A stretch of DNA of 64,000 nt from assembly GCF_056746865.1 (NCBI RefSeq), contig NZ_CM163382.1; one strand, written 5' to 3'. A program made the position numbers and the translations under genes. Below, piece after piece: positions 6,371 through 20,836 of the stretch. How positions within the stretch are numbered: the first letter of the stretch is position 1; every line of letters starts with the position of its first letter. The notes beneath the pieces are model-generated. The model was not told the DNA's origin. It saw only the letters and a list, made by a program, of their open reading frames with translations, and made no database searches.

Positions 6371-7149
6371 TAAAATACAGTAATAGCGGCGTACATCAGG
6401 CACGCCGCTCACTCGTCCACAGATCATATACGTCATTATACTGCGCGATAACGGAGGGCTTCAGCACCCGGTCATTTCTGAGCGGGTATGAATACCATTG
6501 ATGATGCGAAGCAGCCACGGGCAGAAACGTTCTTCACAACCAGGTGCCTCCATCTTCACTGCAGTCTGAATGTGCCGGCTTGTTATCCACCAGAAATGGT
6601 ATGCTCCGGTACATGCATACCCCGGAGACTATAAACGCACTGAATCATAGCCTCCCACCTCAGCAGGAGGCAGTCAGCTTTCAGGCGGAAAAACGTTGCA
6701 GTTAAAGATCGTGAGAATCGCTGTTTCGTTGCATAGCAACCCGAACAGTTGTAGTGAAACATTTTACCTGCATCAGCACATGGTCAGGCGCCGTCTGTAT
6801 GGCGTGGAATACTGATGTTTCGGCTGATGGCAAGCCTCATTCTCTGTGGAAACAGGGGCGCGCATTAGCTTCTCAACCAAGAGAGTGTCACAAAGACAAA
6901 TATTGCTGAAAATCGCATTCATCGTTCAGGCGTGAATGCCCGGAGACAAAAGCCGCTGTCCACACAGTCCCCCTCTGACCTGAACAAAAAGCATACACAC
7001 AACAGGCTCACCTGACCCCGAAAAACCATAACTTCAGCAATACCAGTGACACCAGCACGTTACCTCAGTGCCACATCTTCAGACCGCGATCAATCTGAAA
7101 TGTGACTATCGGGGCAATATCCCTGCTTTGTGGTACACGATAACCAGAA

Positions 7150-7244
7150 AACATCCCCTGAACCGCCAGCCAGAAAGACTGGCCACAAAAGGGGTAAGCT
7201 GAAATCGTTTATGGATTACATCGACATATGCCTGGCAGAGAATG
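7150..7244 (+). pseudogene. IS21 istA remnant, 5' piece (split by the IS66 insertion)
   Basis: Translates PEPPARKTGHKRGKLKSFMDYIDICLAEN, matching the IS21 IstA N-terminal region; continues in frame at 9683 once the IS66 element is removed. Confidence 0.55.
7237..7244. repeat. 8-bp target-site duplication AGAGAATG (left copy) of IS66-family element
   Basis: Identical 8-mer immediately flanks both GTAAGCG termini (7237-7244 and 9683-9690). Confidence 0.8.
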
Positions 7245-7285
7245 GTAAGCGTGCAGTGAGAACCGTATTGACGAAGTGAAGCTGG

Positions 7286-8822
7286 TCAGGCGGGCAGAGT
7301 AACCCGCCACGGGAGCAGAGCACCCACCCGGTTCACAGGCCAGTCGGCGATGACATCAAGTACATGATGCAGATAGCGTTCCGGATCCACGCCGTTTAAT
7401 TTGCACGTCCCGATAAGACTGTACAGTGACGCACCGCGCTCACCACCATGATCCGAGCCGAAGAACAGCCAGTTTTTTCTCCCCAGACTGACCAGTCGTA
7501 GGGCGTTTTCGGCAATGTTATTATCCACCTCCACCCAGCCATCTTCTGCATAGCGGGTCAGCGCCGGCCACTGGTTCAGCGCATACCCGAACGCCTTCGC
7601 CAGTTCTGAGTGCCTTGAGAGGGTTTTCTGTTTCTCCCGCAGCCACCCCTCCAGTGACGCCAGCAGCGGCAGCACTTTTTGGTGCCGGACTGCCTGCCGT
7701 TCCTCTGCTCTTTTACCTCTGAGCTCCGACTCGATGGCATACAGCTCGCCGATCCGTTTCAGCGCCTCCTCCGTCAGGGCTGACGGGGTACGGACGTGAA
7801 CATCGTGGATTTTTCGGCGGGCATGGGCCCAGCACGCGGCTTCCTTTATATGGCCGTCGCGGTAGAGCTCGTTGAACCCGGCGTAGGCATCAGCCTGCAG
7901 TACGCCACTGAAGCCTGCAAGATGGGTCTGAGGGTGGATACCTTTTCTGTCCGGGCTGTAAGCGAACCACACTGCGGGGGCCAGCGCTGATCCGGCGTTG
8001 CGGTCGTCTCGAACGTACGTCCATAAGCGCCCGGTCTTCGTCTTCTTATTGCCCGGCAACAGCACCGGGACAGGCATATCGTCAGCATGGAGTTTGCCGT
8101 CGGTCAGGACATAGTGCTGAAGGGCTTCATCCAGCGGTGCCAGCAGACGACAACACGCATCCACCCAGCCCGACAGTACAGAACGACTCAACACTACACC
8201 CTGGCGGGCATAGATCTCCGACTGGCGATACAGCGGTATGTGCTCTGCATACTTTGAGGTCAGCACTCGGGCCAGCAGCCCCGGTCCGGCGATCCCCCGT
8301 TCGATGGGGCGCGAAGGAGCCGGGGCCTGAACGATGCGATCGCACCGACGGCAGGCATGCTTTTCACGGACTGTCCGGATAACCCGGAAGGCGCTGCGCA
8401 TCAGCTCCAGCTGTTCGGCGGCATCCTCACCCAGGTAACTCAGCGAACCACCGCACTCCGGGCAACACGGCTCAGTCGGCAGCAGCCGCTTCTCATCCCG
8501 TGGGAGTGACTCAGGGAACGGTTTGCGGGTGCGGGTCTGACGCAGCGGGCGCTGCACTGCCGGGTCATCCACCCGGCCGGTCAGCGTATCGCTTTCCTGC
8601 TGCAGCAGGTTCAGGTCAGCTTCCATTTGCGCGATACGGCGGGATACCTTTTCGGAACGACTGCCGAAGTTCATCCGGCGCAGCTTATCCAGTTGCGCCT
8701 GCAGATGGTCTATTTCGCGTTCCCGGTTGCTCAGCTTTTCCTGCAGGGCGTGGATCAACGCTTCCTGGTTCGGCCAGGCGCTGTTTCAGCAGAAGGATGT
8801 CGTCAGAAGAGGTGTCGTTCAT
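7286..8822 (-). pseudogene. tnpC: IS66 transposase TnpC with a frameshift about 17 codons from the start
   Basis: ORF 7286..8758 is the IS66 TnpC body. The N-terminus MNDTSSDDILLLKQRLAE is encoded from 8822 in another frame, with one extra C near 8770 (gaaccaggaagcg). Confidence 0.65.
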
Positions 8823-8871
8823 AAGCCTGTATTTTACCAGGCTTATTCTGCGACAACCAGGATAAAGAGCG

Positions 8872-9219
8872 CTACAACATGGTCAGGGATGTCAGTAACC
8901 GCTTTGGCTGTCGCCAGTCGATACCTTCCATCAGCATCGCCAGTTGCGCCGGCGTCAGGAACACTTTGCCATCGCGGGCTGAGGGCCAGGCGAAGCGACC
9001 ACGTTCTAGTCGCTTTGTCAGCAGGCACAGACCATCGCCGGTGGACCAGAGCAGTTTTACCTGACTGCCGCTGCGTCCCCGGAAGATGAAGACGTGGCCG
9101 GACATCGGGTCATCTTTCAGCGCGGTCTGCACCTTTGCGGCGAGGCCATTGAAGCCGTTGCGCATATCGGTGATACCGGCAACCAGCCAGATTTTTGTGC
9201 CTGCGGGAAGATTTATCAT
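8872..9219 (-). CDS. tnpB: IS66 family accessory protein TnpB
   Basis: 115-aa ORF MINLPAGTKIWLVAGITDMRNGFNGLAAKVQ..., typical IS66 Orf2. Confidence 0.85.
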   Translation of the reverse strand: MINLPAGTKIWLVAGITDMRNGFNGLAAKVQTALKDDPMSGHVFIFRGRSGSQVKLLWSTGDGLCLLTKRLERGRFAWPSARDGKVFLTPAQLAMLMEGIDWRQPKRLLTSLTML

Positions 9220-9599
9220 ACAGGCCCCCGCATCAGTTCGCGCAGGACAGTGCTCATGAGTTCAGCAGAGGGATGAGTCAGTGTTATTTCTCCTCCCCGA
9301 CATTTTATGTGGCAGGTAGCGGGAGGAGAGCAGGATGGTAGTTCGAAGGTTGGGAGAGAAGAGCCCGCCTGAAGCTGCACGGGTATCAGGGCAGGAAGCG
9401 ACGATGAGTTTTTTCGGGGCCGACAGACCCGCCCTTCACGCTGCCAGAGCCTTATCCATTTAAAGAGCAGGTTATCATTGACGTCATGTTTCCGGGCCAG
9501 TGCGGCAATACTGCCTTCTTCTTCAAGAGCCAGCCTGACCAGTTCCATTTTGAATTCAGGGGAATAGTGTTTCCGGGGAAGTCTTTCTTTAGCGCGCAT
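9216..9599 (-). CDS. tnpA: IS66 family accessory protein TnpA
   Basis: 127-aa ORF with HTH-like N-terminus, overlapping the tnpB start by 4 nt. Confidence 0.75.
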   Translation of the reverse strand: MRAKERLPRKHYSPEFKMELVRLALEEEGSIAALARKHDVNDNLLFKWIRLWQREGRVCRPRKNSSSLPALIPVQLQAGSSLPTFELPSCSPPATCHIKCRGGEITLTHPSAELMSTVLRELMRGPV

Positions 9600-9682
9600 G
9601 AGGTGTCCACCTGCAAAATAAGTGGGTGCTTAAGTTACAGGATCCTGGATTCGGGACCAGACGGTACTCAGACGACGCTTAC

Positions 9683-9690
9683 AGAGAATG
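9683..9690. repeat. 8-bp target-site duplication AGAGAATG (right copy) of IS66-family element
   Basis: See left copy at 7237-7244. Confidence 0.8.
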
Positions 9691-9960
9691 TCCGGAATGA
9701 CGAGGTTATCTTTGCGGAGATTAAGGCAATGGTATACGGGCCGACGTTCCATGCCGCGTTACTACATTCAGCCCGGACGTAAAATGCGCCCGTCAAAAAG
9801 AACGGTTCGCTTCGAAACTCAGCCAGGATACCACCTCTCCGCCACACCCGGGAAGAAGTTGATATGGTGGTTGCCGGACAACAGCGCTCCTGGATTGACT
9901 GCTGCATCACTCAACCACGCTGAATATCAAAGGAGAGCGTTACCGGTTAAAAGAGAAACG
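9683..9960 (+). pseudogene. IS21 istA remnant, 3' piece (frameshifted, truncated)
   Basis: Encodes NVRNDEVIFAEIKAM and, in a second frame, RYYIQPGRKMRPSKRTVRFETQPGY, matching IS21 IstA residues ~85-150. No intact ORF. Confidence 0.6.
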
Positions 9961-11466
9961 TAAAGCTGTGGTGATGACCCAAAACGCAACGCCTGTCAGT
10001 GAGGATGAAATGGTGAAAAGCGGACAGCATCAGTAACGGAAGTATCTTAGCGGGTACGAAAATGGCAGGATCGTGACATTGACAGAATATCTCCTGATCA
10101 TCCTGAATGACTGCAGTTGCTGTAGAAAAGTAAGCTGTCTCCACCCACGGCACCACTTAACAGGCATTCCGTAACTTCCCCCAGACTTACTATGACGCAT
10201 TATCGGTGCACTGAAAACGGGAGAGTGCGCTTAAAACCGCAGACCGCATGCGGGTGTTACTGCATGACAGTCTGGCCGTATTGTGAGATGTCGGCAGGAA
10301 CCGATGTCCGCGCAGGGGGGAACTTCCTGCAGTACCTGACGCTTCAAATGGTATTAACCGTAGGGTGTTGTTGGTTCCGGATCGCGGAAATGGGAGCACA
10401 GGTCTGCTACGGGGTGTACCTCTGACAGTATATCCGGCTCGCTCATCTGACAGCCTCTCTCCCGGAAAAGACCAAAAATGAGATCGTCTCCTCAACAGCA
10501 GAGAAGAGGTCTTGACAGACAGGCTATATTGCATACGATTTATGAAGAAAAAGACAGCAAATATGGAGGTTATAGCGGAGAATACCCTACGAAATTCCTA
10601 TGAAAAACGATTGAAAAAAATATCAAATTCGATTCGTTTTTATATGCTTTTTGGGAGCGTGGCGATGACGAACTGTTGCATGTGCAGAGGAGAATGCACC
10701 CGGAAGCACCAGAATCATCCAGAAAGGCAGAACGATTACGCATCAAACCAGGAGACAGCAATATCAAGGTAATATACTGATTTAAAATGAATTTACAGCA
10801 ATACGTGAAAACATTTTTTACTTAAAGGAGACAGATGCGCTGAAGAGAGTGCAAGTATTTTTATATAAAAATGAGAAGTTTACGGGATGTATATCCGGCA
10901 CACTATGACCGGAGAATATCAGTCAAGCTTAAAAAGACAATAAATACAGTGAGTTAAATACACAGAGAAAACGTAGTATCAGAGGGTACATCTTACAACA
11001 GAGACTGAATTTCCGGTTTTTCATAACCGGCGCATTCCGGAAAGTGCAGGCGGCCCGGAGGTTTTCTGACGCCACTACCTGGTAGATTGTTCTGTACATC
11101 ATGTACGGAGGTTTTTGTTTGCTTTTTTAAAATCTGCAAATGTGAGAAAAGCAGGTGAGGTGTATTGTGGGAAAGGAACTGGATGATATCTGCACCAGCT
11201 GTCCGTATATCGATGCTGTAAAACGGCACAAACAACAGCTCGGTGCCATAGAGGAATATACACAGTGGTTAAAAAAAGAACCACGGGCATCTTATTTTTT
11301 TCTGTTCCAGCTGTATACCCGCATTCACAATACATTTTTCTCCCAAAAGCAACAACTCCCGTTCACTCCCGGTGGCACTCACTGCCCGGAACCTGATGTC
11401 ACCCTTCGGGACTTAACGCTTTCCCCTGGCTACCACAGTGATTATGCCCCTCAACCCATTCCGGAG

Positions 11467-12401: not shown

Positions 12402-12637
12402 ATGAATCCGTCTGATGCCATTGAGGCAATTGAAAAACCGCTCTCCTCCCTGCCTTACTCACTTTCCCGTCACATCCTGGAACATCTGCGCAAACTCACC
12501 AGTCACGAACCCGTGCCTGGCATTATGGGTAAAAGCGGGGCCGGTAAATCCTCACTCTGTAATGCGCTGTTTCAGGGGGAGGTCACCCCGGTCAGTGATG
12601 TTCACGCCGGCCCCCGGGAAGTGCAGCGCTTCCGTCT
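12402..12637 (+). pseudogene. YeeP/YfjP-like small GTPase gene, N-terminal part (interrupted by IS21-family element)
   Basis: P-loop GKSGAGKSS, then ...REVQRFRL at the insertion junction. Confidence 0.7.
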
Positions 12638-12839
12638 TGCAAAATGGCATCTGAATCGATCGCAGTTTGGCATTCGAATCGATCATGATTTGGCATCCAT
12701 CTCCGATCACAGTTTGGCATCACAATCGATCACGATTTGGCATGCTTCCGATCATTGATTGGCATCCTGCCAGTCACTCCGGGAATTAACTCTTTTCACC
12801 ACAGTCTCCATTGCCGTGTTTAAACCAGTGGAGACGTCA

Positions 12840-14405
12840 ATGTCCAGAAAGAGAAAATCCAGGAGCACTATGGAAACCTGTTTTAAGATTCTTCAGCTCA
12901 AGTTCGACAAGAAGCTGACTAACCGTTGTATCGGACTGACGTTACACATCAGCGCCTCAACCGTTTTTGAGGTTCTTGCCCGCTTCAAAGCCTCTTCTCT
13001 GTCATGGCCATTACCTGCTGATATATCCCATGACACGCTGGAGAAACTCATTTTTCCGCCCAAAGACACCTTTGCATCAGAGCTTGTAATGCCTGACATG
13101 TTGTACCTCGATACGGAAATGAGAAAACCAGGTGTGACGCGGCAACTGTTGTGGATGGAATACAAGGCACAGGCGGGTAACAAAGCGATGGGATACTCGC
13201 ACTTCTGCCGTTGCTACCGGGAGTGGAAAAAAACGCGACGTCTCTCCATGCGCCAGGAGCATCGTGCCGGCGAAAAGCTTTTTATCGACTTCTGTGGTCC
13301 TACGGTTCCTGTTATTAATCCGGACACCGGTGAGATACGCCGCGTGGCAATCTTCGTGGCCGTAATGGGGGCGTCCAACTATACCTACGTTGAAGCGTGC
13401 GAAGGTCAGGACATGATGTCATGGTTAAATGCCCACAGCCGTTGCCTGACCTTCCTGGGCGGCGTACCGAAGCTGCTCATCCCCGATAACCTCAGAAGCG
13501 CAGTGAAAAAGGCCGATCGATATGAGCCTGTCATCAACGACAGTTATCAGGCACTGGCTGAGCACTATGGCACGGTTATCATCCCGGCCCGACCACGCAA
13601 ACCTAAAGATAAACCAAAAGCAGAAAACGGCGTCCTCATCGTCGAACGATGGCTTCTTGCCCGCATCCGTAATGAAACCTTCCACACGCTCAGGGCGCTG
13701 AATGCGCGCCTTAGGGAGTTACTGACAGACATGAATAACCGGCCAATGAAGGGGTACGGCAATCAAACCCGTGCAGAACGCTTCCGCATACTGGATGCGC
13801 CAGCACTCTCTCCGCTGCCTCTGGCACCTTATGAATACACGGAATACAAAGCTGTGAAGGTTGGCCCTGACTACCACGTTGAATATGCCCGTCACTGGTA
13901 CTCCGTTCCACACGAACTGGTCGGTCAGCGTCTGTCACTGAAGGCGGGGCAGTCGGTGGTACAGCTCTGGCACAAGGGGCAGTGTGTGGCGCAACATCCG
14001 CGCAGCACACATGAATATAAACACACAACCAATCCGCTTCACATGCCAGAGCGCCACCGGCAGCACGGGACATGGACACCGGAACGCCTGATCGAGCAGG
14101 GAAAACGTACGGGCCCGTCCACAGGCCGGGTGGTTGAATCCATGCTGAAGGCAAAACCCCATCCGGAACTGGCTTATCGTGCAGTTCTGGGGCTGCTGGC
14201 ACTTCAGAAAAAATACGGCCCGGAACGGCTGGAAAAGGCCTGTTACGTTGCCCTGCACTATAACGCCCCTGACAGACGCTTTATCGACAATCTGCTGCGT
14301 CACCATCGGGAGAACCTGGAGCTTCCATTATCCCGCCAGGGCGAACAACATCCGGCATATGCTTCAGAGCATGAAAACCTGCGTGGTCCGGGCTACTACC
14401 ACTGA
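12840..14405 (+). CDS. istA: IS21-family transposase IstA
   Basis: Long ORF with GGAG ribosome-binding site before ATG 12840; lies between IS21-type ends, directly upstream of an IstB-like gene. Confidence 0.7.
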   Translation: MSRKRKSRSTMETCFKILQLKFDKKLTNRCIGLTLHISASTVFEVLARFKASSLSWPLPADISHDTLEKLIFPPKDTFASELVMPDMLYLDTEMRKPGVTRQLLWMEYKAQAGNKAMGYSHFCRCYREWKKTRRLSMRQEHRAGEKLFIDFCGPTVPVINPDTGEIRRVAIFVAVMGASNYTYVEACEGQDMMSWLNAHSRCLTFLGGVPKLLIPDNLRSAVKKADRYEPVINDSYQALAEHYGTVIIPARPRKPKDKPKAENGVLIVERWLLARIRNETFHTLRALNARLRELLTDMNNRPMKGYGNQTRAERFRILDAPALSPLPLAPYEYTEYKAVKVGPDYHVEYARHWYSVPHELVGQRLSLKAGQSVVQLWHKGQCVAQHPRSTHEYKHTTNPLHMPERHRQHGTWTPERLIEQGKRTGPSTGRVVESMLKAKPHPELAYRAVLGLLALQKKYGPERLEKACYVALHYNAPDRRFIDNLLRHHRENLELPLSRQGEQHPAYASEHENLRGPGYYH

Positions 14406-14421
14406 CAGAAGGAACAACAGT

Positions 14422-15177
14422 ATGAGTGATAACCTGTTAAACAAACTGACCCAACTGAAACTCCCGGCGATGGCCGGGAGCCTGATACGGCAGCGGGAAA
14501 CGCCTCAGACCTACGACGAACTGTCGTTCGAGGAAAGGCTGACGCTGCTGGTTGATGACGAGCTTCTGAGCAGGGAAAACAGCCGTGTGGCACGGTTGAG
14601 AAAAAATGCCGGCCTGAAATACCAGGCAACACCGGAAGGGCTGCGCTATCCGGCCTCAAGAGGTCTGCGGGCTGAACAGATGAGAGAACTGCTGAACGGC
14701 CACTACATAACCCACAGGAAAAACCTGCTGATAACCGGTCCGACAGGATGTGGCAAGAGCTGGATAGCCAATGCGCTGGGCGAACAGGCATGTCGACAGA
14801 AACACAGCGTCCGGTACTGTAGAACCGGGCGATTACTGGAACAACTGGCTCAGGGACGTGTTGATGGCAGCTGGCTGAAATATCTGAAACAGTTGCAAAA
14901 AATACAGGTTCTAATCCTGGACGATCTGGGGCTGGAACAGTTAAGTAACGCCCAGTGTAATGACCTTCTGGAGCTCATAGAGGATCGTTACGGACAAAGC
15001 AGCACGATAGTGGTAAGCCAGTTCCCGGTAGATAAATGGCATGGTCTGATGGAGAACCCAACAACAGCAGATGCCATCCTGGACAGACTGGTACATAACT
15101 CACACCGGGTGGTCCTTCAGGGAGAGTCACTGAGGAAAAATCCCCCGGTAGTGGAAAGCAGCGAAAAAACGCGTTAA
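14422..15177 (+). CDS. istB: IS21-family helper ATPase IstB
   Basis: Walker A LITGPTGCGKS and Walker B VLILDDLG motifs; ATG 14422 with AGGAA upstream. Confidence 0.85.
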   Translation: MSDNLLNKLTQLKLPAMAGSLIRQRETPQTYDELSFEERLTLLVDDELLSRENSRVARLRKNAGLKYQATPEGLRYPASRGLRAEQMRELLNGHYITHRKNLLITGPTGCGKSWIANALGEQACRQKHSVRYCRTGRLLEQLAQGRVDGSWLKYLKQLQKIQVLILDDLGLEQLSNAQCNDLLELIEDRYGQSSTIVVSQFPVDKWHGLMENPTTADAILDRLVHNSHRVVLQGESLRKNPPVVESSEKTR

Positions 15178-15276
15178 AAAGCGGTAGAAAAAGTTAAGTT
15201 CCCGGTTGATCGAATGGATGCGAATCGCTGATCGGACTTCGATGCCAATCCGTGATCGAATAGAGCGGAATACGCA

Positions 15277-15920
15277 TCCGTCTGAATGGCCATGGTCACA
15301 GCATGGTTATCACTGACCTGCCCGGGGTGGGCGAGAGCCGGGACAGGGATGCAGAGTATGAAGCCCTGTACCGTGACATTCTGCTCGAACTGGACCTGGT
15401 ACTGTGGCTGATTAAAGCCGATGACCGTGCCCTGTCTGTGGATGAGTATTTCTGGCGACACATCCTGCACCGGGGACATCAGCGGGTACTGTTTGTGGTG
15501 ATGCAGGCCGATAAAACGGAGCCCTGCCATGAATGGGATATGGCCGGTATTCAGCCTTCTCCCGCACAGGCACAGAACATTCGCGAAAAAACGGAGGCGG
15601 TATTCCGTCTGTTCCGGCCCGTACATCGGGTTGTTGCCGTATCGGCCCGCACCGGCTGGGAACTGGATACGCTGGTCAGTGCGCTCATGACAGCACTTCC
15701 CGACCATGCCGCCAGTCCCCTGATGACCCGCCTGCAGGACGAGCTGCGCACGGAGTCTGTCCGGTCTCAGGCCCGTGAACAGTTTACCGGTGCGGTGGAC
15801 CGGATATTTGACACGGCGGAGAGCGTCTGCATTGCCTCTGTTGCACGCACGGTTCTGCGCGCCGTCCGTGACTCGGTGGTCTCTGTTGCCCGCGCGGTAT
15901 GGAACTGGATTTTCTTCTGA
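15277..15920 (+). pseudogene. YeeP/YfjP-like small GTPase gene, C-terminal part
   Basis: Continues the split GTPase: G3 motif DLPGVGES, then LVLWLIKADDR and VLFVVMQADK. Confidence 0.7.
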
Positions 15921-16040
15921 ACCCGGTGGTGATGTACCAGGCTGTTGTTACAGATTTTTAACTCCATGAAAACACTATGCAAACGCAGCCATACCCGGGT
16001 TGTCCCCTTGCGTTGTGTTTCTCAAGTTAATAGAATACAT

Positions 16041-16077
16041 CGATCGTTACTATCATATCGATCGTTATAAACGATCG
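16041..16077 (+). promoter_or_regulatory. cluster of three GATC (Dam) sites embedded in repeated CGATCGTT motifs, 60 bp upstream of the dynamin-like gene
   Basis: GATC at 16060-16063 and 16073-16076, with a third at about 16042; each inside a cgatcg palindrome (catcgatcgttact...atcgatcgttataaacgatcgttt). Confidence 0.5.
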
Positions 16078-16137
16078 TTTGTAGTAAATGACCTCCTCCG
16101 TGGTTGTCATGAAAATGCGTCTTAGGAAGGTTAAATA

Positions 16138-18534
16138 ATGCACGAAAAGAACATCGCCCTGCTTTGTGATGAAGCCGACCGACTTTTGCAACTGAACATT
16201 AATCTGCTCCGGCAAATGGTTGAGGAGCCAGATGTGTTATCTGACAGTAAGAACGAAAACAGACTGCTTTTTGATAAACAGAAAGCACTGAAAAGAATTG
16301 AGGAGCTGGAGGGCGAACAAATCAAAACCGCCCGCAGGGAGATGGTGCTGGCTGTTGTCGGCACGATGAAAGCAGGCAAATCAACCACCATCAACGCCAT
16401 TGTGGGGCAGGAAATTCTGCCTAACCGTAACCGCCCCATGACCTCTGTACCGACGCTCATCCGCCACGTTCCCGGAAAAACTGAGCCGGTTCTCCATCTG
16501 GAACATATTCAGCCTGTCCGCAATTTATTAATCACACTGCAGGAAAAACTCGCCACCCCGGCAGGACAGCAGGTCGCACAGACCCTGCAGCAAACCGGGG
16601 ATACCCGCGAACTGCTGGATATTCTGACGGATGATGGCTGGCTCAAAAATGAATACCACGGGGAGGAGGAAATCTTTACCGGACTGGCATCGTTAAACGA
16701 TCTGGTTCGTCTTGCTGCGGCAATGGGGACTGAATTTCCTTTTGATGAATACGCAGAAGTGCAGAAACTGCCGGTGATCGACGTGGAATTCAGCCATCTG
16801 GTGGGGATGGATGCATGCCAGGGAACACTCACACTGCTGGATACCCCCGGCCCTAATGAGGCCGGACAACCGCAGATGGAAGTGATGATGCGGGATCAAC
16901 TGCAGAAAGCCTCTGCGGTTCTGGCTGTGATGGATTACACCCAGATGAACTCAAAAGCGGATGAAGACGTCCGTAAAGAGCTTAATGCCATTGCTGACGT
17001 ATCAGCCGGCCGCCTGTTTGTACTGGTCAATAAATTTGATGAGAAAGACCGCAATGGCGATGGGGCAGATGCCGTACGCCAGAAAGTTCCGGCAATGCTG
17101 AACAGCGATGTGCTGCCCGCCTCCCGCGTTTATCCCGGATCCTCACGCCAGGCATACCTGGCTAACCGTGCGCTTCATGAGTTACGGAAAAACGGAACCC
17201 TTCCTGTTGATGAAGCCTGGGTCGATGATTTTATCAGAGGTGCCTTCGGTTGCATGAAAAAAGAATACGTCTGTAAAGACAGTGAACTGGCAACTGAAGG
17301 GGCGACAGACCTGTGGGAAGGCTCACTTATCGATCAACTGATAACGGAAGTCATACAGAGCTCACATTCCAGAGCTGCGGCACTGGCGGTTGACTCTGCC
17401 GCCGCAAAACTGATGCAGAATGCAGAAAATATCAGTGAATACCTGTTGTTACGCCATCAGGGGCTACAGCAAAGCATTCAGTCACTGCAGTCGCATATCA
17501 CCAGCCTGCTTGCGGATATCCGGGAAATCGCGGACTGTCAGGAGCAGATGACCACTGATGTCAGAATGGCCATGGAGGAGATCGATACTAAAACCCGGGA
17601 ATTACTGACGGGGGTCTGCACCTCACTGGAAGAGGAGCTGAATGACTATTTCAGAAGCGGTAAACGCAAAGAACAGCAAATGCTGGAGGAAGAAGACGCA
17701 GAACAACGAAGGTCTCAGTCCGGATTATGGGGGAAAATTTCTCAATGGTCCGGTATCAACAACCAGGGCCGGGAGGATTACAGGAAACGAGATTTTGCCC
17801 CGGACAGCCCCGAAATAAAATTCAGTGATCGCAGGGAAGCCCTTGAACTGATGACGCAAATCGAATCGACCGTGACCAGCCTGCACCGTGAGGCTGAAGC
17901 ACAGTTCCGGCCTGAGCTGGAGAAAATCGTCAGCGGGATTGAAACAGGTTTTCGTGGCACGGCCCTGTACGCCACAGAAAACATTGCCGGTCGCATCAAT
18001 GCCCGCCTGGAGGATGAGGGCTTTACCGTAAAAATCAGTTTTCCGGCAGTCAGCCAGTTACAGACCCGGCTCGCGGTAAAAATAAATCTGAGTGCGCTTA
18101 TGGAGGAAAGAACGGAGACCGTCACCCGTCGCCGTCGGCAGAGTGGCGTATGGGGAACCGTTTGTCGATGGTTTGGCACCAGTGACCTGGGCTGGGAAAA
18201 CTATGACGAGGATGTGAGTCGCAGCGTGATCAATATCAACAAGGTCAGAGAGGAAGTTATGTCACTGACCCGGGCATATTTCGGGGAGCTGCAGGCATCC
18301 ATTGAGCAGGATATTAACCAGCCCGTCCGCCAGGAAATCGATGCCTTTTTCTGCGCATTCAGGGAGAAAGTTGAACAACTGCGTAACACGCTGATTCAGA
18401 GCTCTGAAGATCATAAACGCGATCAGCAGGCGCAGGAACGGCTTACCGGGCGACTTCAGGCATTAAATGAAAGGGTTCCTGAGCTCATTACTGACAGTAA
18501 GGCGCTGAGGGAAGAGCTGGAGACAATGCTGTGA
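16138..18534 (+). CDS. dynamin-like GTPase, CrfC/YjdA-like (798 aa)
   Basis: G1 P-loop GTMKAGKST, G2 Thr in MTSVPT, G3 DTPG, G4 NKFD, in dynamin order, followed by a long helical region. N-terminal block MVLAVVGTMKAGKSTTINAIVGQEILPNRNRPMT closely matches recalled E. coli CrfC. AGGAAGG ribosome-binding site. Confidence 0.85.
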   Translation: MHEKNIALLCDEADRLLQLNINLLRQMVEEPDVLSDSKNENRLLFDKQKALKRIEELEGEQIKTARREMVLAVVGTMKAGKSTTINAIVGQEILPNRNRPMTSVPTLIRHVPGKTEPVLHLEHIQPVRNLLITLQEKLATPAGQQVAQTLQQTGDTRELLDILTDDGWLKNEYHGEEEIFTGLASLNDLVRLAAAMGTEFPFDEYAEVQKLPVIDVEFSHLVGMDACQGTLTLLDTPGPNEAGQPQMEVMMRDQLQKASAVLAVMDYTQMNSKADEDVRKELNAIADVSAGRLFVLVNKFDEKDRNGDGADAVRQKVPAMLNSDVLPASRVYPGSSRQAYLANRALHELRKNGTLPVDEAWVDDFIRGAFGCMKKEYVCKDSELATEGATDLWEGSLIDQLITEVIQSSHSRAAALAVDSAAAKLMQNAENISEYLLLRHQGLQQSIQSLQSHITSLLADIREIADCQEQMTTDVRMAMEEIDTKTRELLTGVCTSLEEELNDYFRSGKRKEQQMLEEEDAEQRRSQSGLWGKISQWSGINNQGREDYRKRDFAPDSPEIKFSDRREALELMTQIESTVTSLHREAEAQFRPELEKIVSGIETGFRGTALYATENIAGRINARLEDEGFTVKISFPAVSQLQTRLAVKINLSALMEERTETVTRRRRQSGVWGTVCRWFGTSDLGWENYDEDVSRSVININKVREEVMSLTRAYFGELQASIEQDINQPVRQEIDAFFCAFREKVEQLRNTLIQSSEDHKRDQQAQERLTGRLQALNERVPELITDSKALREELETML

Positions 18535-19436
18535 CTTCACCATTTATTCAACAAATTGCTGATAACCGGGTATGTCAGGTACTCACCTGTCTTCCTGAAA
18601 AATTTGTGGTTGATTTCGCAAACGGAATCGATGTTGCACAGGAGCATATCCGCACGGCCGGAGAGCGCACGTTCTTCCGGCGTTTAAAAGAGGGGCTGAC
18701 CGGCGAAGGCGCTGCACGGCAGAATGCCATCAATGCGTCGCTTGCACAGGGCGTTGAGGCGTCCCTGCGCTGGCTGACGGAGATGACAACGTCACTTGCC
18801 ACCACAAACTACGCGATTACCCGGGTAAACGACAGGGTCAGTTCACTGGTCAGTGATACAGCCAGGCTGGCGCATTATTCCGCAGATACGCGGGAGCAGT
18901 TACTCACCCTGGCCGATCAGGTTCACCATAAACTGAATCATCTTGAAGAAAAACTCCACCGTGTTGACCAGGTTCAGCGGGCGCAGTTACATCTTGAGCA
19001 GATATTCTCATGGTGGAGCGCCGGGCGATATGCGTCATTTTCCCCTGCCGGACGTTGTTATGTGGCACTTGAAGAGCTTCGCTGGGGCGCGTTTGGTGAT
19101 GTGATACGTCAGAGCGAAACAGGCCAGGTTAACCAGCTACTGGATATTCTCAGACATAAAGCATTAACGCAGATGGCACAGGAGAGTGGCGGTAGTGCAA
19201 CCGTGCGTCTGAACACTCTGGACTGGCTTGGTGGTCAGGGCCGGGAGCAGGCAGATAACGAGTGGCATGACGCGATTAACTGGCTGGGAGACTGGTGCAG
19301 TGAAGAGCAGCATCCGGTGATCTGGTCAACCACGCAGGCTGCAGAACACTTACCGGTTCGCATGCCTCGCCTCTGCTCTGCAGAACGCCTCTCTGAAAGT
19401 ATGGTCGATGAAATATTTCAGAAGGGGGCTGCATGA
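18531..19436 (+). CDS. YjcZ-like partner protein of the dynamin-like GTPase (301 aa)
   Basis: GTG start overlaps the upstream stop (ctGTGA); GGAG 10 bp upstream. Size and position mirror the crfC-yjcZ pair; family assignment not verified. Confidence 0.55.
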   Translation: MTSPFIQQIADNRVCQVLTCLPEKFVVDFANGIDVAQEHIRTAGERTFFRRLKEGLTGEGAARQNAINASLAQGVEASLRWLTEMTTSLATTNYAITRVNDRVSSLVSDTARLAHYSADTREQLLTLADQVHHKLNHLEEKLHRVDQVQRAQLHLEQIFSWWSAGRYASFSPAGRCYVALEELRWGAFGDVIRQSETGQVNQLLDILRHKALTQMAQESGGSATVRLNTLDWLGGQGREQADNEWHDAINWLGDWCSEEQHPVIWSTTQAAEHLPVRMPRLCSAERLSESMVDEIFQKGAA

Positions 19437-20503
19437 GTACAGAAATGAAAACGGGGCTGGTGCTGTCCGGTGGCGGGGCGGTGGGCGCTTATCAGGCGGG
19501 AGTGGTTAAGGCACTGGCAGAGTGTGGTACACAGATCAGCATGGTTTCAGGGGCCAGCATTGGCGCATTCAATGGTGCCATTATCGCGGCCTCTCCCGAT
19601 CTGTCAGAAGCTGCCGTACGCCTGGAGGCGCTCTGGGATCATCTGGGGAATAATCAGGTGCTGTCGGTAAACAGATTGGTTTACTTTTCATTGCTGAAAA
19701 AATTGTTCCAGGCAATGAACCTCTGCCAGATCCCCGGACGTGCAGGAGCACTGCTTACGACGCTTCTTCGCCATATATCGACAATCAACGGGTTTGACAA
19801 TCTGATGGCTCAGCCGTTGTTGTCAGATGAGCCCCTGACAGCGCTGATGGATCATTATCTTGATACTGATGCTCTGGCAGACGGGCTACCGCTGTATGTG
19901 TCGCTGTACCCCACAGAAGGGGGCATGCAGGATATTATTGACTGCATTCGTGCTGAACTGGGTGTCGGAACCACGAAAAACGCCGTTTTTCAGCATATCC
20001 AGAGCCTGCCCCGCGGACAGCAGAAAGAGGCTCTGCTTGCGTCAGCCGCGCTGCCCCTGCTGTTCCGTCCCCGTGAGGTTCAGGGGACAATGTTCGGTGA
20101 TGGTGGTATGGGAGGATGGCGAAATATGCAGGGAAATACCCCTGTGACGCCTCTGGTCGATGCCGGATGCAATATGGTGATTGTGACGCATCTGAGTGAG
20201 GGTTCTTTATGGGATCGCCAGGCTTTTCCGGACACCACAATCCTTGAGATCCGTCCCCGGAAAAGGCTGAAATATGCAGGTGATGGTGGCAACAGCGGCG
20301 GTCTGCTCAGTTTTACATCGGCACATACCGACGCCTGGCGTCAGCAGGGCTATGAAGACACGATGCTGGCGATGGAGCATATCCGGAAACCGCTGGCAGC
20401 ACGTCAGGCACTGACCCGGTCAGAGGCGGTATTGCAGAAAAGCCTGGATATAACGGAAGAGGCAGATTTGGCACTGAGAAACGCGATGGCCCGGATTAAA
20501 TAA
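19433..20503 (+). CDS. patatin-like phospholipase (356 aa)
   Basis: Oxyanion motif LSGGGAVGAYQAG, nucleophile elbow G-A-S-I-G (Ser42, nt 19556-19558), catalytic Asp in FGDGG (Asp223, nt 20099-20101). ATG overlaps the upstream stop (gcATGA). Confidence 0.85.
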   Translation: MSTEMKTGLVLSGGGAVGAYQAGVVKALAECGTQISMVSGASIGAFNGAIIAASPDLSEAAVRLEALWDHLGNNQVLSVNRLVYFSLLKKLFQAMNLCQIPGRAGALLTTLLRHISTINGFDNLMAQPLLSDEPLTALMDHYLDTDALADGLPLYVSLYPTEGGMQDIIDCIRAELGVGTTKNAVFQHIQSLPRGQQKEALLASAALPLLFRPREVQGTMFGDGGMGGWRNMQGNTPVTPLVDAGCNMVIVTHLSEGSLWDRQAFPDTTILEIRPRKRLKYAGDGGNSGGLLSFTSAHTDAWRQQGYEDTMLAMEHIRKPLAARQALTRSEAVLQKSLDITEEADLALRNAMARIK

Positions 20504-20836
20504 AGACGCCCCAAAGAAACGCCACCGCCTGTGGTGGTGTTTTTCCTGTCTGGTGTTATTGAAAATATTTTCATATATATATTACCTGAGAGAAAGTTTT
20601 ACCCCTCACCTGTCAATTCACTCACTGGAAATTTAATTATGAAATTACCTGTAAAGTTATTAATGAGCCTTATATCTCTGGTCAGCGTTATTGCACGTGC
20701 CGGGGAATATAAAAATTACAGCCGGGATGAAATAAAATACTGGCGATATACATCATACAAGGGGGGGAAACTTCCGGAAGGTTTCACTGATGAGAAATTT
20801 TCCAGCGCCATTTACAACGGAAGAATATTTACAATG

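Follow-up and report, generated by a model that had tools for sequence, protein, structure and literature searches.

What sequence of events produced the nested insertion sequences found in a CP4-44-like, IS-rich genomic island of the E. coli chromosome, and does such a nest mark a hotspot for insertion? An earlier note on the 64-kb stretch of DNA analysed here (the window) had described, at positions 7150-9960, an IS66-family element nested inside a degraded IS21 istA gene, and had taken the arrangement as a marker of an insertion hotspot. The nest, a frameshift in the inner element and the IS21 remnant around it are already annotated in RefSeq. We set out below the evidence for one ancestral insertion into sequence that had already decayed.

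A full-length IS66-family insertion sequence

Positions 7245-9682 of the window comprise a full-length IS66-family insertion sequence of 2438 bp, with its genes arranged in the order tnpA, tnpB, tnpC on the minus strand. Its features are as follows.

7245..9682, minus strand: IS66-family insertion sequence, 2438 bp (intact allele 2437 bp)
7245..7266, minus strand: terminal inverted repeat at the tnpC-proximal end, GTAAGCGTGCAGTGAGAACCGT, 17/22 complementary
7286..8822, minus strand: tnpC, DDE transposase with a +1 frameshift, ATG at 8822
8767..8768, minus strand: extra C in tnpC following codon 18 (CC, against a single C in intact copies)
8872..9219, minus strand: tnpB, IS66 accessory protein, intact, 115 aa, WP_000609174.1
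9216..9599, minus strand: tnpA, HTH accessory protein, intact, 127 aa, WP_001201739.1
9661..9682, minus strand: terminal inverted repeat at the tnpA-proximal end, read on the minus strand as GTAAGCGTCGTCTGAGTACCGT

The element begins with GTAAGCG at 7245 and finishes with the complement, CGCTTAC, at 9682. Its inverted repeats are imperfect, matching at 17 of 22 nt, and the tnpC-proximal terminus at 7245 is identical in three copies of the same IS at other loci. Inverted repeats that begin with GTAAGCG are a defining motif of the IS66 family, and the family assignment made in the earlier note was borne out by every signature found: a DDE-type TnpC, the accessory genes tnpA and tnpB (which overlap by 4 nt), the GTAAGCG repeats and an 8-bp target-site duplication. 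The Pfam domains recognised across the element were HTH_Tnp_1, TnpB_IS66, LZ_Tnp_IS66, zf-IS66, DDE_Tnp_IS66 and DDE_Tnp_IS66_C, and the NCBIfam models transpos_IS66, IS66_TnpB and IS66 TnpA each scored above their cut-offs. Individually, tnpA matched PF01527 (E = 2.9e-13) and NF047595 (75.7 bits, cut-off 74), tnpB matched PF05717 (E = 1.7e-38) and NF033819 (119 bits, cut-off 50), and the tnpC reading frame downstream of the frameshift matched PF03050 (DDE_Tnp_IS66, E = 7.5e-104) together with PF13005, PF13007 and PF13817. The intact TnpC allele at the same locus scored 462 bits against NF033517 (cut-off 180).

The interrupted sequence is a remnant of an IS21 relative

The sequence on both sides of the element is homologous to IS21, for which the copy on plasmid NZ_CP054233 served as the reference.

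7153..7244, plus strand: left part of the istA remnant, from approximately nt 117 of IS21 istA, blastn identity 87%
7237..7244, unstranded: target-site duplication, first copy, AGAGAATG, native IS21 sequence
9683..9690, unstranded: target-site duplication, second copy, AGAGAATG, a perfect 8-bp match to the first
9691..9882, plus strand: right part of the istA remnant by blastn homology, reaching approximately IS21 coordinate 501
9879..10084, plus strand: istB tail and right terminus, ending ...ATCGTGACATTGACA, blastn identity 90%

Homology to IS21 sets in abruptly at about 7153, with the left inverted repeat (IRL) and IstA residues 1-38 missing, and the alignment showed no IS21 similarity upstream of this point. 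The right part of istA has a -1 frameshift of its own, following ...AEIKAM, and stops at the junction of an internal deletion of approximately 1.4 kb, beyond which lie the last 45 or so codons of istB (stop at 10036; positions 226-252 of the 253-position IstB profile NF006616) and, just inside the right end, a 12-nt deletion. The istA fragment scored only 29.8 bits against NF033546, for which the whole-protein cut-off is 160, because approximately 75% of the gene is missing; PGAP annotates this fragment as 'IS21 family transposase, frameshifted, incomplete' and the istB tail as 'AAA family ATPase, incomplete'. Of the two terminal repeats (5'-TG...CA-3') the right one is present at 10084 and the left one is absent, thus this is a remnant and not an element.

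Joining position 7244 to 9691 gives ...KLKSFMDYIDICLAENVRNDEVIFAEIKAM..., and the joined frame is 84% identical to residues 44-119 of IS21 IstA when the remnant's downstream frameshift is bridged. The flanks therefore do restore an IstA-like reading frame, as had been proposed, and blastn, protein identity and the PGAP call agree on a degraded istA as the host sequence; the span first given to the nest was slightly short, since IS21 homology extends from about 7153 to 10084. IS21 itself is a 2131-bp element encoding istA and istB, with 87% DNA identity to the flanks over istA nt 117-400 and 90% over the istB tail and end, and its right terminus, ...TTGACA, is conserved in the remnant, but the remnant retains only about 490 bp of that length, having lost the left end, the first 38 IstA codons and the internal 1.4 kb, besides carrying one frameshift and the 12-nt deletion. 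The remnant's 87-90% identity marks it as a relative of IS21 rather than as a copy of that element, and with the more distant ISEc62 the identity falls to 77%. A plasmid sequence (H67) that at first resembled a similarly deleted 722-bp IS21 derivative was rejected: its pieces had been joined across two IS21 copies in tandem, an (IS21)2 dimer.

Relationship to known IS66-family elements

ISEc8 of E. coli O157:H7 is an IS66-family element, for which the annotation of Stx2 phage 1717 (FJ188381) gives 2442 bp. It matches the present element in the arrangement of its three genes and in its GTAAGCGT termini, and it too is flanked by an 8-bp duplication, which in phage 1717 reads GGTTATCG. Its TnpB is 96.5% and its TnpC 87.7% identical to the proteins of the present element, with 83% DNA identity from position 482 to the end (482-2438). 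In contrast, identity in TnpA is just 36.9%, and no DNA similarity could be detected across positions 1-481, which hold the IRL and tnpA, so the tnpA module differs from that of ISEc8. Isoforms in the ISfinder convention share approximately 95% or more of their DNA sequence, and by these figures the element is not an ISEc8 isoform. ISEc8, ISEc22 and ISKpn24, the relatives named in phage and plasmid records, were all rejected as its identity (approximately 82-84% DNA identity, different tnpA), and PGAP places its TnpC outside the groups named for these three elements, as 'IS66 family transposase'.

IS66 and IS679 are the prototype and the best-studied members of the family. IS679 reportedly has a tnpA-tnpB-tnpC organisation, a DDE-type TnpC, imperfect inverted repeats of 20-30 bp and an 8-bp duplication. 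The present copy resembles both in its gene organisation, its DDE-type TnpC, its imperfect terminal repeats and its 8-bp target duplication, but differs in the disabling +1 frameshift in tnpC. The target duplication of IS66 is 8 bp (PMC6778807).

We also noted that, relative to ISEc8, the tnpA/IRL module is unrelated (37%) although tnpB is near-identical and tnpC similar. If true, this contrast would document that IS66 lineages have exchanged modules by recombination, a reading of the sequences that we hold to be distinctly improbable.

The frameshifted copy is likely to be immobile

Strain 64.1 holds an intact copy of the element at this locus (the 2437-bp intact allele is found at NZ_CP059917.1 2876440-2878876). 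That copy is 2437 bp long with an unbroken tnpC and differs from the copy in the window only by the single C and one synonymous change, reading CTGGCCGAACAGGAAGCG where the window reads CTGGCCGAACCAGGAAGCG. The extra base, placed about 17 codons into tnpC by the earlier note, follows codon 18, and PGAP flags the gene as a frameshifted pseudogene. Programmed frameshifting was excluded by the unbroken reading frame in strain 64.1 and by the lack of the extra C in 477 of the 503 records that hold the same IS isoform.

The frameshifted copy is likely to be unable to make full-length TnpC, and so to be immobile unless complemented in trans. A 490-aa reading frame nevertheless persists on the minus strand (8758-7286), starting from a TTG codon at 8758 that is immediately preceded by AGGAAGCG, and it holds all four recognised TnpC domains (LZ_Tnp_IS66, zf-IS66, DDE_Tnp_IS66 and DDE_Tnp_IS66_C). 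The copy might therefore still be active, either by restarting at this TTG with the loss of 21 N-terminal residues or through TnpC supplied in trans, and the intact tnpA, tnpB and inverted repeats, together with the occurrence of the same IS at up to nine places in some genomes, would agree with this. We consider it rather improbable. The extra-C allele was found at no other locus among 5426 complete E. coli genomes, which together with the frameshift suggests inactivity, and no second copy of the IS lies within the 64-kb window. A spacing of only 4 nt separates the Shine-Dalgarno-like motif from the TTG, and intact copies share the motif equally, thus it is not an adaptation of this allele. 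Disruption of any of the three ORFs of IS679 is also said to abolish transposition. That the copy is not dead, its truncated TnpC either serving as transposase or inhibiting intact copies in trans, is a conjecture from the sequence to which we give a small chance. The suggestion that the element may be inactive thus stands as a likelihood, qualified by the four-domain reading frame.

One ancestral insertion rather than a hotspot

An identical junction between the element and the remnant was found in 296 of the 5426 complete E. coli genomes, O104:H4 included, in every case in the same orientation and in the same island. Identity across 296 genomes points to one ancestral insertion event, and a single event means that the nest alone is no proof of a hotspot. 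That the IS21 octamer AGAGAATG is a sequence-specific hotspot struck repeatedly by IS66-family elements we think very unlikely; no consensus emerges among the four observed target octamers of the same IS, the three independent plasmid copies being flanked by CTTCAACG, TGAGAAAC and GAAAAAAT. Many other IS elements have nevertheless gathered in the neighbourhood: the surrounding 15 kb of the window contains four IS-derived segments, and in other strains IS150, ISEc10 or IS1 is present nearby or inside. These elements sit, however, at different positions, and their accumulation is what one would expect of a non-essential region that tolerates insertions, not of a site-specific hotspot. The IS21-family element at 12638-15276 showed no similarity to the ISEc10 copy of L004, an uninterrupted locus described below, and Rfam and tRNA scans of the whole window returned nothing in or near the nest.

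The extra C is a real allele

A 61-mer containing the extra C matched exactly in 25 records and, in 477, only with a gap and without the extra base. All 25 records span the junction between the IS and the IS21 remnant (980 nt, compared with 979 nt), and approximately 270 further genomes have this insertion but lack the extra C. Assemblies often contain artefactual single-base indels, and with an intact allele at the same locus and the extra C lacking from most insertion-bearing genomes, a sequencing or assembly error in an element that is really intact has to be considered. It is highly unlikely. Twenty-five complete, independent assemblies from differing laboratories, hosts (poultry, dog, horse, pigeon and human) and countries share the identical base, always at the same locus, and the site is CC versus C with no long homopolymer. 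The extra C is a real, rare allele, present in 25 complete genomes and confined to this locus.

The empty site and the order of events

The joined 800-nt flank is unbroken in 409 genomes at 99.9-100% identity. Two such empty sites, L004 and L005, read GCCTGGC-AGAGAATG-TCCGGAATG, with a single octamer, and no empty site with zero or two copies of AGAGAATG was seen in the other E. coli genomes checked. IS21 itself reads GCCTGGCAGAGAATG at the position of the first copy. The octamer occurs three times on the plus strand of the 64-kb window, two of these being the copies that flank the element; with the termini fixed independently, the chance of an 8/8 match is 4^-8 (p of approximately 1.5e-5). 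The three plasmid copies have identical GTAAGCG...CGCTTAC termini, and termini are identical across the four independent copies of the IS and ISEc8, whereas AGAGAATG adjoins none of the three other copies checked. The octamers as extended element termini, an idea favoured only by their adjoining the ends, can be set aside with near certainty, the single AGAGAATG lying at the exact position in uninterrupted remnants and IS21 and the adjoining 8-mers differing at the three other copies. The perfect 8-bp target duplication first noticed beside both GTAAGCG termini is thus confirmed.

The PGAP pseudogene of the empty-site genomes corresponds to 7157-7244 plus 9691-9884 of the window, and the truncation, deletion and frameshift are already present in the empty-site sequence, which matches the joined flanks at 100% identity. 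Since the empty site shares these defects, the decay of the IS21 relative preceded the IS66 insertion.

Proposed history and significance

DDE transposition proceeds by staggered cleavage of the target and gap repair, and the product of that step, a duplication, is what is observed at this locus. Very probably, a single transposition in an ancestor placed the IS66-family element in an IS21-like remnant of the CP4-44-like island that was by then already defunct; the target would have been cut with an 8-bp stagger and gap repair would have duplicated AGAGAATG. The insertion was thereafter inherited by the descendants of that ancestor (the 296 genomes), a minority lineage (the 25 genomes, the source of the window or one like it among them) later gaining the single C after codon 18 of tnpC. 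That gain breaks the transposase frame and most likely leaves the copy without full-length TnpC.

The importance of the locus beyond annotation is small: no mechanism, gene or system found in it is new, and the insertion is an ordinary one, common to hundreds of strains. The nest does provide a clean, datable series, from IS21 decay through IS66 insertion to the tnpC frameshift, in which each of the three steps could act as a marker of E. coli lineages, and the locus exemplifies the build-up of IS debris in cryptic-prophage-like islands.

Structure and target duplication of the IS66-family element

The IS66-family element at 7245-9682 is 2438 bp long and carries three genes between its terminal repeats, all on the minus strand.

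Genes of the IS66-family element
9599-9216, minus strand: tnpA, 127 aa; HTH_Tnp_1
9219-8872, minus strand: tnpB, 115 aa; TnpB_IS66 (E = 1.7e-38)
ATG 8822 to stop 7286, minus strand: tnpC; LZ_Tnp_IS66, zf-IS66, DDE_Tnp_IS66 (E = 7.5e-104) and DDE_Tnp_IS66_C in the long frame

TnpA, TnpB and TnpC all exceed the curated cut-offs of the NCBIfam IS66 models. The size, gene order and GTAAGCG termini of IS66-family elements are known from ISfinder, Han et al. 2001 and Gourbeyre et al. 2010. The element conforms to the family in its 2438-bp size, the order of its genes, its GTAAGCG termini and its 8-bp duplication, and with the profile matches these features bear out the assignment made in the earlier note.

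Reading 6900-10200 of the window placed AGAGAATG at 7237-7244, followed by GTAAGCG from 7245, and the last base of CGCTTAC at 9682, followed by a second AGAGAATG at 9683-9690. Just three occurrences of the octamer were counted on the plus strand of the whole 64-kb window, and given that the element ends are fixed independently, the flanks would match at 8/8 positions by chance with p ~1.5e-5. The ends pair as a 22-nt imperfect inverted repeat (17/22 matches). A search with an 800-nt empty-site query, comprising both flanks fused with one octamer copy, showed that 409 complete E. coli genomes contain it without interruption (99.9-100% identity). Two of these, strains Z1323CEC0012 and SMS-3-5, read GCCTGGC-AGAGAATG-TCCGGAATG at this site, with the octamer present once, and Z1323CEC0012 is identical to the query across the full 800 nt. 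Three independent copies of the element on E. coli and Citrobacter plasmids (99.5-99.9% identical) share the GTAAGCG...CGCTTAC ends exactly and are flanked by CTTCAACG, TGAGAAAC and GAAAAAAT, respectively. The single octamer at empty sites and the different octamers around the plasmid copies show that the octamers derive from the target and do not belong to the element, and thus that the proposed duplication is genuine. An 8-bp duplication has been described for IS66 (PMC6778807).

The closest named relative that we reached was ISEc8 in the annotation of Stx2 phage 1717, where it measures 2442 bp and has the duplication GGTTATCG. The two are 83% identical in DNA from position 482 onward, with TnpB and TnpC 96.5% and 87.7% identical; for TnpA, in contrast, identity drops to 36.9%, and over the first ~480 nt the DNA shows no similarity. 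ISEc22 and ISKpn24 are ~82-83% identical over the same part as ISEc8. This combination marks the element as a distinct IS66-family IS with a different tnpA/left-end module, and the swapped module (9216-9682, compared with 414-900 of the ISEc8 sequence) suggests that IS66 lineages recombined at the tnpA/tnpB boundary.

The IS21-like remnant

Similarity to IS21 identifies the flanks as leftovers of an IS21-like element. Joined, 7153-7244 and 9691-9882 are 87% identical to nt 117-400 of IS21 istA, and IstA residues 44-119 share 84% identity with the bridged peptide, which supports the degraded istA proposed as host of the nested element. Further on, 9879-10067 matches the istB end and 3′ non-coding end of IS21 at 90% identity, and the alignment continues past a 12-nt deletion to the conserved right terminus ...ATCGTGACATTGACA at 10084. 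Alignment to IS21 found no similarity upstream of ~7153. The remnant has no left end or first 38 IstA codons, has a ~1.4-kb internal deletion and is frameshifted after ...AEIKAM; PGAP labels its two pieces "IS21 family transposase, frameshifted, incomplete" and "AAA family ATPase, incomplete". The target position in IS21 itself reads GCCTGGCAGAGAATG. The empty-site genomes share all of these defects, which places the death of the IS21 copy before the insertion of the IS66-family element.

Non-coding sequence upstream of the remnant reads CAACCAGAG in most empty-site genomes and CAACCAAGAG, with one extra A at 6879, in the window, strain Santai and Z1323CEC0012. Separately, we observed plasmids that carry IS21 and ISEc62 as head-to-tail tandem dimers (L006 1088-5355; L007), which repeat every 2134 bp (2131 plus a 3-bp junction). 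Such dimers are known in IS21 biology as the reactive (IS21)2 junction.

The tnpC frameshift

In strain 64.1 this locus holds the insertion too, as a 2437-bp element with an intact tnpC of 511 codons (WP_001000401.1). Relative to that copy, the window has one synonymous change at 7292 and one added C, CTGGCCGAA-C-CAGGAAGCG, at 8767/8768 after tnpC codon 18, which substantiates the extra C noted early in the gene. A 61-nt probe spanning this site detected the IS isoform in 457 of 5426 genomes, with 25 records carrying the extra C and 477 giving only a gapped match that lacked it; the IS/IS21 junction is present in 296 genomes. With a probe of 980 nt that reached from the frameshift into the IS21 flank, exactly 25 records spanned 980 nt and the further matches listed spanned 979 nt, so every extra-C copy lies at this locus. 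The allele is real, because it recurs in 25 independent assemblies at a site outside any homopolymer run. It is also derived and rare. No movement of it was seen with either probe across the 5426 genomes, and this pattern is what an inactivating mutation would be predicted to show. PGAP flags tnpC as a frameshifted pseudogene. A 490-aa ORF from TTG 8758, with AGGAAGCG directly upstream, keeps all recognised tnpC domains, and the copy might accordingly retain residual activity or be complemented in trans.

Island context and the hotspot question

The window starts in a CP4-44-like island encoding an AlpA-type regulator, an Inovirus Gp2-family protein, a YeeP-like GTPase, a dynamin-family protein and yeeS/yeeT/cbeA/cbtA, beyond which lie yeeA, sbmC, dacD, sbcB, the his leader and the O-antigen JUMPstart. 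Four IS-derived segments fall within 15 kb.

IS-derived segments
369-1988: ISL3 pseudogene
7153-7244 and 9691-10084: IS21 remnant
7245-9682, minus strand: nested IS66-family element
12638-15276: second IS21-family element, full-length; duplication TCCGTCT; splits GTPase gene

The ISL3-family transposase pseudogene has an internal stop and adjoins a truncated gamma-glutamyltransferase gene at the window start; part of its ORF gives a weak IS21-type HTH match. The second IS21-family element (2639 bp, apparently intact; istA ORF 12759-14405, istB end 15177) interrupts the YeeP-like GTPase gene between 7-bp TCCGTCT copies at 12631-12637 and 15277-15283; in strain Santai the gene is uninterrupted and TCCGTCT occurs once. 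We found no DNA relatedness of this element to the IS21 remnant or to the ISEc10 of Z1323CEC0012. Downstream of the GTPase gene, 15300-20600 (L008 13492-17857) encodes dynamin-family, RdcB-family and patatin-like phospholipase proteins, where K-12 CP4-44 has flu (Ag43); this set may be a defence or membrane-remodelling cassette.

Other genomes carry further insertions: IS150 directly upstream of the remnant in SMS-3-5 (L005 1579-2948), ISEc10 a few hundred bases off in Z1323CEC0012 (L004 1-1075), and IS1A within the IS66 copy of strain 50EVA (NZ_CP138412.1), forming a three-deep nest. The island region tolerates IS insertions. A site-specific hotspot is not supported: the nest is a single inherited event, because all 296 genomes share its junction and orientation, and the four octamers that this IS is known to have targeted have no motif in common. 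The region is better described as a permissive, non-essential "junkyard".

The IS-in-IS nest was correctly observed and interpreted overall. It is an ordinary one, already annotated by RefSeq in hundreds of genomes, and can serve only to mark lineages and to illustrate, neatly, how IS elements decay step by step.
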